Part shown: positions 43,430-45,075 of the stretch, piece after piece
How positions within the stretch are numbered: position 1 is the stretch's first letter
Layout of the letters: every line of letters starts with the position of its first letter
Origin: Escherichia phage Turkey5
Sequence record: PQ471516.1
Reading direction: 5' to 3' (one strand)
DNA length: 64,000 nt
Notes under the pieces: generated by a model
The model's input: the letters and a program-made list of their open reading frames with translations, nothing else
Told to the model about the DNA's origin: nothing
Databases searched by the model: none
Made by a program: the position numbers and the translations under genes

Positions 43430-44524
43430 ATGAATTTTGTTATCTTACTGATTCCGTCTTTGATTGTTGTTCTGGTTATGAAGTACATGTACGACCACAC
43501 TATCAGTACTAAAGAGTTTTTCATTCATCTTGGTTCTTGTGTCGTGGGTGCATTATTGGTTCTTTGTGTTTCATATGCCATCAACTACAGTCAGCTTCAT
43601 GATGTTGAAATCCTTAATGGACATGTAACATCAAAATACAACCACACTGAGTTCTGCACACCTAGTAGTTCATGTAAGCACTATACTTGGCATAAGAAGT
43701 GTCATACCAGTTATGATAGTAAGGGTAGAACACATCGTGAGTGTGAATCATATAAGGTCTTTGATTATTCATACGAAGTTGATTGGTACGTTGACAGTAC
43801 TGTAGGTAAGTTTGAAATTGAACGCGTGAACCGTCAAGGAACAATGACTCCACCAAGATGGAGTGTAGTTAAGATTGGTGATTATGCCGCCGCAGAGCAT
43901 AACTACATCAACTATCTATTTGCTGATGAGCATTCATTGTTTAGCGAAAAACAAATTACTGAAGTATACGACCCTGAATACTTAGAACGTATTCCGACCT
44001 ATCCATCGATTAGTAATTATTATAAAACATACCATGTTATTAATAAAACTAATTATGATGTATCTGGTTTGAATGAGTATTTGATTGAAGAACTCAAAAC
44101 AATGGGGGAACGTAAACAAGTAAACATTCAAGTACTAGTGTATCCTTACCTTGATGTGAACTTTGTTGATGCTACATTATCTGCATGGCGTGGTGGTAAG
44201 AAGAACGATGTGATTATGTTCTTTGGTATTGATGGTGATGGTACAGTGAAGAAATTTGATAGTACTTCATTCGCTAAAGGTATGAATAACGAAGACCTGC
44301 ATTCTCAAATGCGTATGGATTCGTTAAATGAGAAATTATCGCTTGACTTGTTGAAGGTTCAGGTGCATAATATTGATACAAAGTTCCAGAGACTATCCAA
44401 TCAAGAATTTGAATATCTCTCTGTAAAAATGGAACCACGTAAGGATGTTATGATTATCGCTTCATTCATCCTAATGCTACTGTCAATCGTAATTGGTAAT
44501 TACATGAGGAAAGTTGATTTATGA
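43430..44524 (+). CDS. Membrane protein with N- and C-terminal TM segments and Cys-rich central domain
   Basis: ORF; hydrophobic termini; weak RBS. Confidence 0.55.
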   Translation: MNFVILLIPSLIVVLVMKYMYDHTISTKEFFIHLGSCVVGALLVLCVSYAINYSQLHDVEILNGHVTSKYNHTEFCTPSSSCKHYTWHKKCHTSYDSKGRTHRECESYKVFDYSYEVDWYVDSTVGKFEIERVNRQGTMTPPRWSVVKIGDYAAAEHNYINYLFADEHSLFSEKQITEVYDPEYLERIPTYPSISNYYKTYHVINKTNYDVSGLNEYLIEELKTMGERKQVNIQVLVYPYLDVNFVDATLSAWRGGKKNDVIMFFGIDGDGTVKKFDSTSFAKGMNNEDLHSQMRMDSLNEKLSLDLLKVQVHNIDTKFQRLSNQEFEYLSVKMEPRKDVMIIASFILMLLSIVIGNYMRKVDL

Positions 44525-45075
44525 ATACTAAAGTAATGGTACTGCTGGGCTTCTTGGTTGTTGTTATGATTGGTTGTTTTGGCGTAGTAAGTATGTTTAC
44601 TGGTGCTCATGACCGTGCCGTTGAGTTTGAAGGAAACATTAAGAAATACTATGATGCTTCCGAAAGTCAACTAAGTAATTACACACTGAAAATCCAAGAG
44701 AAAAACCAAATTGCTGATAAGTACAAAAACGCACTAAAAGATACTATTGAAGCATATTTCCGTGGACGTGAAGGTGTTGACCAGAAATTTGTAATGTCAC
44801 AGATTCAGCAACAGATTCCAAATCTTGATCCTAAGATTTATCAAGAAATGATGGTTACAATTGATGCAGGTCGTGATAAATTCAACAACCTCCAGAAAAT
44901 GAAAATTGACCAGTGTACCGATTATGAAAAATTCCGTAAAGGGTTCTGGAACTCCAAACTTCTAGATACCGCTGTGTTCCCTGGAAAAGACATTGAGCAT
45001 CTATGTACTGTAGTTTCTGATGTACGAACTAAGAAAGCAATGCAAACTGGTATTCAAGAAGTAATTAAACTGTAA
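44521..45075 (+). CDS. LemA-like membrane protein
   Basis: N-terminal TM helix; LemA-like spacing of conserved blocks (QIQQQIPNLDP, DYEKFRKGFWNSKLLDTAVFPG); ATGA overlap. Confidence 0.5.
   Translation: MNTKVMVLLGFLVVVMIGCFGVVSMFTGAHDRAVEFEGNIKKYYDASESQLSNYTLKIQEKNQIADKYKNALKDTIEAYFRGREGVDQKFVMSQIQQQIPNLDPKIYQEMMVTIDAGRDKFNNLQKMKIDQCTDYEKFRKGFWNSKLLDTAVFPGKDIEHLCTVVSDVRTKKAMQTGIQEVIKL

Follow-up and report, generated by a model that had tools for sequence, protein, structure and literature searches.

What two overlapping genes for putative membrane proteins contribute to infection by a large coliphage is the question raised by positions 43,430 to 45,075 of a 64,000-nucleotide (nt) stretch of DNA from Escherichia phage Turkey5 (PQ471516.1), referred to as the window in the following. 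The window derives from an Asteriusvirus (Rak2/121Q-like) jumbo coliphage and shares 98.2% identity with Escherichia phage vB_EcoM_JNE01 over this region. A first-pass annotation had described the two genes, here called A and B, as a translationally coupled module of a Cys-rich membrane protein and a LemA-like protein and had suggested superinfection exclusion or lysis timing as candidate roles. Because most of the bacterial lemA genes we sampled precede an overlapping gene for a TPM protein, we conclude that A and B very probably represent a viral variant of this bacterial lemA-TPM operon, in which the gene order is reversed and the TPM partner is more elaborate.

Both open reading frames (ORFs) and their ATGA overlap were recovered at exactly the coordinates first given for them. 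The start codon of B (ATG, 44521-44523) overlaps the stop codon of A (TGA, 44522-44524), and a GAGGA motif is located 10 nt upstream of it, inside the end of A. Because an exhaustive profile search returned 2,211 cluster representatives of A (E ≤ 1e-3, clusters at 50% identity), the top 150 of which are all of full length, and because 1,536 relatives of B were collected after seeding with distant partner proteins, A and B are, judged by their conservation, genuine genes and not chance ORFs.

The two genes are inseparable across phages. By tblastn against 50,697 phage records, A was found in 482 and B in 480, with an identical breakdown by genus, and in ICP1, Vi01, Erwinia phage Special G, Aeromonas phage Ah1, LIMEstone1 and RaK2 the two genes lie side by side in the same orientation. 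We also retrieved 80 loci from IMG/VR with the A profile, and in 78 of them A is followed by B on the same strand, the two exceptions being contigs that end less than 400 nt from A; the order A to B therefore holds in all 78 testable, i.e., non-truncated loci. An overlap of the two genes is also present in 30 of these 78, and the median gap between A and B is 15 nt. One architecture is kept in Ackermannviridae, Straboviridae, Asteriusvirus, ICP1, T5-like phages and other lineages, all carriers being virulent phages with genomes of more than 100 kb and Gram-negative hosts only, and the A/B family appears to be confined to phage genomes and phage-like contigs. The sole locus seen with the opposite order is L004 on the JGI metagenome contig Ga0136235_1000327 (4447-6071), where a B-like gene is followed by an A-like gene with a 1-nt overlap; an IS605/TnpB (Cas12f-like) gene and a gene for a ParA-like ATPase are present on the same contig.

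Gene B is, at the level of remote homology, a divergent member of the LemA superfamily. The protein encoded in the window gave no match in NCBIfam, in PADLOC or by phmmer against the PDB, and PDB searches with the single sequence or a narrow profile came back empty; only a broadened family profile reached 2ETD. The first homologue search had yielded close relatives only, and it was widened by using the partner proteins of the distant A homologues L004 and L005 as seeds. These partners share 27-31% identity with B, and one of them scores 24.2 bits on the Pfam LemA model, whose cut-off is 26.2. With the resulting family profile, built from a 37-member alignment, the structure 2ETD ("lemA protein") was the sole significant match in the PDB (E 2e-4, chain residues 9-154), and 16 of the 37 relatives individually match PF04011 (LemA). 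Alignment of the B family by hhalign scored 93.4% against the 2ETD sequence and 98.2% (E 4.9e-14, 159 columns) against a set of 79 bona fide LemA proteins, which were taken from bacterial genomes and match PF04011 at E values of about 1e-63, while cross-controls scored about 3%. In the reverse direction, a hidden Markov model derived from bacterial LemA alone matched ten phage B ORFs at E ≤ 1e-5. The assignment as LemA-like made in the first-pass annotation thus stands at the level of the family profile. That annotation had named a missing LemA profile match, together with no membrane localisation, as the result that would speak against it; the former is what we found for the window protein alone, and it is overturned by the family-level evidence. 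The proposed layout of an N-terminal transmembrane (TM) segment and a helical domain was also borne out, since B contains a single hydrophobic segment and its model shows helices at residues 3-62, 66-81, 88-98 and 104-143. A match of B to Spore_III_AF (7.5e-5, below the cut-off) was rejected; it recurs in three of the 37 relatives, compared to 16 for LemA. Two cysteines of B, C132 and C162 (44914-44916 and 45004-45006), are invariant in the Asteriusvirus/Alcyoneusvirus clade and absent from the wider family, which is consistent with a clade-specific periplasmic disulfide.

The family of gene A (phrog_2087) has no function assigned in PHROGs. Its protein carries hydrophobic segments at residues 1-22, 28-54 and 336-360 (Kyte-Doolittle peaks of 2.27, 2.28 and 2.31); the hydrophobic segments previously proposed for both ends are therefore present, with two instead of one at the N-terminus. 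An AlphaFold2 (AF2) model built from an alignment of 36 homologues is confident (pLDDT 90.1, pTM 0.78). In it, the chain begins with two membrane helices that form a hairpin, continues through a beta-rich domain and a linker into an alpha/beta domain, and ends with a further TM helix. On the basis of this model, the C-terminal domain of A is assigned the TPM fold, as a fold-level statement that does not extend to membership in the Pfam family. The earlier suggestion to try TPM profiles hence proved productive: TPM is the sole Pfam family recurring among the relatives of A, and the homologue P0101 passes the gathering score of PF04536 (29.8 vs. 22.1 bits). Two motifs are nearly invariant in the family, WxGGKKND (W253-D260, in the TPM-fold domain) and KQxN. 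For the beta-rich domain of residues 57-160 we detected no relative. In the family, this domain contains 7-8 cysteines plus conserved histidines, with C76, H78, C82, C84, C91, C107, C110 and H113 being nearly invariant. The protein of the window was rightly noted for its cysteines, with four (C76, C82, C91, C105) within 30 residues and two more inside TM2, and this is modest by the standard of its family. In A of the Rak2-like clade (residues 76-111, 43655-43762 of the window), H78, C84, C107, C110 and H113 are replaced, amounting to about half of the ligands; of two metal or disulfide sites, one may be missing in these phages.

The comparison with bacteria gave the pair its identity. About 60 of 80 bacterial lemA loci contain an ORF of 240-280 amino acids (aa) directly downstream. 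This ORF usually overlaps lemA by 1 or 4 nt, and its product has a hydrophobic segment at the N-terminus and a TM helix at around residue 200. Of eight such ORFs tested, seven were strong TPM matches, with E values of 1e-29 to 1e-45, and the LemA proteins encoded beside them had E values of about 1e-63.

The membrane localisation proposed for both proteins is supported by hydropathy and charge bias, which are its only basis. Positive-inside statistics indicate an orientation with the N-terminus inside and the C-terminus outside for B as well as for bacterial LemA. In the A family, the lysine plus arginine content of the tail exceeds that of the region preceding the C-terminal TM segment, whose net charge is acidic, and the same holds true for the bacterial TPM partners. 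The predicted topology of A consists of an external N-terminus, TM1, a short cytoplasmic loop, TM2, the periplasmic beta and TPM-fold domains, TM3 and a cytoplasmic tail. Because of the charge bias, the globular domains of A and B should both face the periplasm, a placement which fits the Cys-rich domain of A and the clade-specific cysteine pair of B.

The pair forms the distal part of a transcription unit in the order promoter, exonuclease gene, A, B and terminator (Table 1). Six perfect TTGACA-17-TATAAT sites are present in the window, all on the plus (coding) strand, compared to 0.06 expected from shuffled sequences, which corresponds to an about 100-fold enrichment over chance. They are probably the strong early promoters of the phage and may be used for mapping early operons genome-wide. 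Because a perfect host-type sigma-70 promoter precedes it, the exonuclease-A-B unit looks like an early one that is driven by host RNA polymerase, as far as promoter motifs, the sole basis of this assignment, can tell. The terminator placed after B by the first-pass annotation was recovered as a hairpin, and none of 200 shuffled sequences folded as well.

Table 1. Features of the A-B locus and its surroundings in the window (positions of the 64,000-nt stretch)
Feature	Position	Strand	Evidence or remark
Other perfect sigma-70 sites	24497-24525, 41447-41475, 47630-47658, 55949-55977, 58323-58351	+	Consensus scan
374-aa-protein gene and TelA-family gene	40314-41438 and 41523-42656		Upstream of exonuclease
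Sigma-70 promoter, TTGACA-17-TATAAT	42660-42688	+	12/12 consensus match; in intergenic gap; heads exonuclease-A-B unit
Exonuclease gene, Rv2179c-like DEDD 3'-5', 228 aa	42739-43425	+	Pfam PF16473, 2.9e-10; phrog_255 "exonuclease"
Gene A, 364 aa, predicted inner-membrane protein	43430-44524	+	ORF; phrog_2087, 4e-126
A, N-terminal hairpin, two predicted TM helices, aa 1-22 and 28-54	43430-43591	+	Kyte-Doolittle; model helices 2-20 and 27-54
A, beta-rich Cys/His domain, aa 57-160	43598-43909	+	AF2 model
A, TPM-fold alpha/beta domain (model), about aa 200-335	44027-44434	+	Carries W253-x-G-G-K-K-N-D260
A, predicted C-terminal TM anchor, aa 336-360, followed by short basic tail	44435-44509	+	Kyte-Doolittle peak 2.31; family charge pattern
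Coupling junction: GAGGA Shine-Dalgarno motif (44506-44510), ATGA overlap (44521-44524)	44506-44524	+	Sequence read directly
Gene B, 184 aa, divergent LemA-superfamily protein	44521-45075	+	phrog_1383, 1e-62; profile evidence
B, predicted single TM segment, aa 5-26	44533-44598	+	Kyte-Doolittle peak 2.95
B, helical LemA domain, aa 31-155	44611-44985	+	Model, family profile
Terminator-like hairpin, 9-bp stem, 5 GC pairs, T-rich tail	45084-45104	+	dG -15.9 kcal/mol, z -3.44

The first gene of the operon had been named dexA, which is right as to the enzyme class, a DEDD 3'-5' exonuclease, and not as to the gene, since T4 dexA is absent among the tblastn matches of this exonuclease. Its relatives occur in Rak2-like and T5-like phages. 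The homologues 121Q gp67, RaK2 ORF173 and those of many T5-like phages often bear the label "metallopeptidase", which can be traced back to T5p085. What the matches to Pfam and PHROG indicate instead is a DEDD exonuclease. Further upstream, a TelA-family protein (Pfam 4e-39) is encoded behind its own perfect promoter (41447-41475) and preceded by a 374-aa protein (phrog_13312). These two and the exonuclease accompany the pair in only 14 of the 80 IMG/VR loci, all from the Rak2-like clade, and all three were rejected as members of the module on these grounds; the exonuclease is a lineage-specific neighbour outside the core A-B pair. Their co-occurrence with the pair throughout this clade gives a hint of a lineage-specific envelope-stress gene neighbourhood.

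Taken together, we propose that A and B are transcribed early with the exonuclease gene from the host-type sigma-70 promoter and translated in a coupled manner, and that the two proteins would form a complex of about 1:1 stoichiometry in the inner membrane of the host, their globular domains lying next to each other on the periplasmic side. This complex would not be a component of the virion. Over the long cycle in which large virulent phages infect their hosts, it would stabilise or remodel the cytoplasmic membrane of the host or the protein complexes of that membrane. This last step is suggested because the TPM analogues TLP18.3/Psb32, MOLO-1 and YdjH (with PspA) are accessory or assembly factors, and TPM domains have been argued to be helpers for the assembly or repair of membrane complexes and not phosphatases (Ravi et al.; lipocone paper). 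As a whole, a viral LemA/TPM pair acting on the host membrane is the best explanation we can offer, and we hold it with moderate confidence; the specific function in maintaining the envelope or membrane complexes, which is drawn from analogy, is put forward tentatively.

Several points weigh against this account. The proteins of the window themselves match neither LemA (PF04011, Pfam at E ≤ 1) in the case of B nor TPM (PF04536, Pfam scan) in the case of A, and among the relatives of A, even weak TPM matches were limited to 5 of 36 in one set and 3 of 99 in a second, diverse one. Alignments of A by hhalign with the bacterial (Bacillota) TPM partners, both in full length and trimmed, gave probabilities of less than 1%, and because they are not significant the TPM relationship is claimed at the level of the fold only. 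The bacterial comparison set is biased towards Bacillota, and the early timing is read from promoter motifs alone. The absence of the proteins from virion proteomes (see below) is weak negative evidence in the case of membrane proteins. Finally, the functional analogy with TPM proteins is weak because we found no experiments on the function of LemA, of LemA-TPM or of the phage pair in the searchable literature.

The two proteins may alternatively serve in superinfection exclusion, as an early inner-membrane complex which blocks either the ejection of a secondary genome or the action of tail lysozyme, following the logic of T4 Imm and Sp. The early-type promoter, the predicted location at the inner membrane and periplasm and the limitation of the pair to virulent phages of more than 100 kb on Gram-negative hosts would all suit such a role, and nothing in this analysis contradicts it. 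Exclusion proteins are usually small, fast-evolving and lineage-specific. The pair, however, keeps a constant architecture across lineages that differ in their receptors and ejection machineries, descends from a cellular operon of the housekeeping type and shows no homology to known exclusion proteins (the PHROG families being unannotated or mislabelled, and PADLOC-DB giving no match for A or B at E ≤ 1). We consider this explanation rather unlikely, though plausible.

A second possibility is that the TPM domain of A is a phosphatase or nucleotidase which hydrolyses a phosphate ester in the periplasm, with nucleotides or signalling molecules as examples, and that B tethers or regulates it. Weak phosphatase or ATPase/ADPase activities have reportedly been observed for some TPM domains (TLP18.3, BA41/BA42), and next to the fold itself, the nearly invariant WxGGKKND and KQxN motifs of A suggest a conserved ligand site. 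The similarity of A to characterised TPM domains is marginal, however, and no catalytic residues could be mapped in A. Moreover, the enzymatic role of TPM domains is disputed, with the Aravind laboratory arguing against a phosphatase (Ravi et al.; lipocone paper), and a periplasmic enzyme appears rather improbable to us.

Control of lysis, in the form of a holin/antiholin, a spanin-like element or a lysis-inhibition sensor that sets the timing, fares less well. The pair is a two-gene membrane module, the architecture of B, with an N-terminal TM segment and a periplasmic helical domain, resembles that of an i-spanin, and the A homologue of Salmonella phage Vi01, Vi01_203, bears the gene qualifier "host lysis protein" next to the product name "conserved uncharacterised protein"; we found no basis for this qualifier, and none is stated. 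The early-type promoter does not suit a lysis gene, A is unlike a holin in its 364 aa and its large TPM-fold ectodomain, B is homologous to cellular LemA, and the neighbours tested (the exonuclease, TelA and proteins without assigned function) are not lysis genes. A lipoprotein or spanin reading of the "MIGC" sequence in B was rejected, since its C19 is not conserved in the B family and A has no lipobox; because a conserved lipobox is lacking, there is no o-spanin. We regard a role in lysis as quite improbable.

The label "virion structural protein" attached to phrog_1383, the family of B, has spread across many RefSeq records, including NC_025447 gene 69, NC_015296 Vi01_204, NC_019526 ORF175 and NC_019925 ORF195, and across some records of Erwinia phages. 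It originates from re-annotation by RefSeq, the original entries for Vi01 and RaK2 reading "uncharacterised" or "hypothetical", and the mass spectrometry on Erwinia phages was done on crude lysates. Neither gp143c, the B homologue of phAPEC6, nor its neighbour appears among the 62 proteins of the virion proteome of this phage, in which gp149c and gp150c, encoded a few genes away, are present, and ORF194 and ORF195 of LIMEstone1 are absent from a 39-protein virion proteome. The label is hence unsupported for the B homologues, and with both proteins predicted to be integral to the membrane and preceded by an early-type promoter, a structural role in the virion is largely refuted and only very remotely conceivable. 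Two ORFs of the window at 38151-38726 and 38726-39406 (191 and 226 aa) correspond by synteny and size to 121Q gp62 and gp63, annotated as "structural protein", and to the virion-detected gp150c and gp149c of phAPEC6 (21.3 and 25.6 kDa); genuine virion genes are thus located at a distance of only about 4 kb from the non-virion pair, on its upstream side.

The viral LemA/TPM pair is relevant beyond this phage. Few bacterial membrane proteins without established function are as common as LemA and TPM-domain proteins, and a tightly linked, architecturally stable viral version now stands in hundreds of sequenced large phages and in more than 2,000 clusters from metagenomes. Its carriers include Vibrio cholerae phage ICP1, Vi1-like and Rak2-like phages that are used or proposed for therapy, and relatives of T4 and T5. 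Such conservation implies that the infection of Gram-negative hosts involves a general need, probably one on the periplasmic side of the inner membrane. The analysis also corrects the propagated label "virion structural protein" and the unsupported label "host lysis protein", and the phage pair offers tractable genetic systems for a first test of what the LemA-TPM partnership does. More speculatively, and with considerable doubt, the pair might be a previously unrecognised early "envelope module" shared by many phage lineages, which was captured from a cellular LemA-TPM operon and re-engineered for a new viral task. The phages would then have added a sensor-like Cys/His beta domain and a membrane hairpin, and examples of such a task would be the sealing or re-energising of the inner membrane after genome ejection, the blocking of secondary ejection or the countering of an abortive infection system acting on the membrane. 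Such a module would be represented by no fewer than 2,200 sequence clusters and present in about 1% of all phage genomes sequenced, among them those of ICP1, of therapeutic Vi1-like phages and of jumbo phages, and solving its role in a phage would provide the first functional handle on bacterial LemA-TPM.

Among known relatives, the gene product gp69 of phage 121Q shares 82% identity with B, belongs to the same family and was annotated in GenBank as "LEMA protein; bromodomain-like fold" (KM507819; also in phage ph0011), presumably from fold recognition against 2ETD. This annotation is confined to B: it identifies neither A as a partner of the TPM type nor the two genes as a conserved module, and RefSeq overwrote it with "virion structural protein". 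The T4 proteins Imm and Sp, which act in superinfection exclusion, and RI and T, which act in lysis inhibition, are likewise inner-membrane or periplasmic proteins of a large virulent phage, and their logic, a change to the envelope once the cell has been infected, would also suit the A-B pair. They show no detectable homology to it, however, and are much smaller, restricted in lineage and not derived from a cellular operon. With TLP18.3/Psb32 (photosystem II repair), MOLO-1 (an auxiliary subunit of the acetylcholine receptor) and YdjH of B. subtilis, A shares a TPM fold that is tethered by a TM segment and exposed to the extracytoplasmic or lumenal side. YdjH partners a Cys-rich (zinc-ribbon) membrane protein, YdjG, and A contains its Cys/His domain fused to the TPM domain. 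The likeness to these proteins ends at the fold, the partner in the phages being LemA and not PspA or flotillin.

The pair also resembles the bacterial lemA and TPM genes (PF04011 and PF04536; e.g., of the T. maritima TM0961/2ETD type and in Bacillota), which are likewise adjacent, co-oriented and usually overlapping. In both cases, one product measures about 185-195 aa and has a LemA helical domain behind a single TM segment at its N-terminus; it is combined with a partner that carries an extracytoplasmic TPM-fold domain, a C-terminal TM segment and a basic tail, with the same topology according to charge bias. Both phage proteins fall below the Pfam thresholds, unlike bacterial LemA and TPM. 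Whereas lemA comes first in bacteria, the TPM-type gene comes first in the phages (78 of 78 loci), and its product has a hairpin of two TM segments in place of the signal peptide, plus an inserted Cys/His beta domain (about 105 aa) that is novel.

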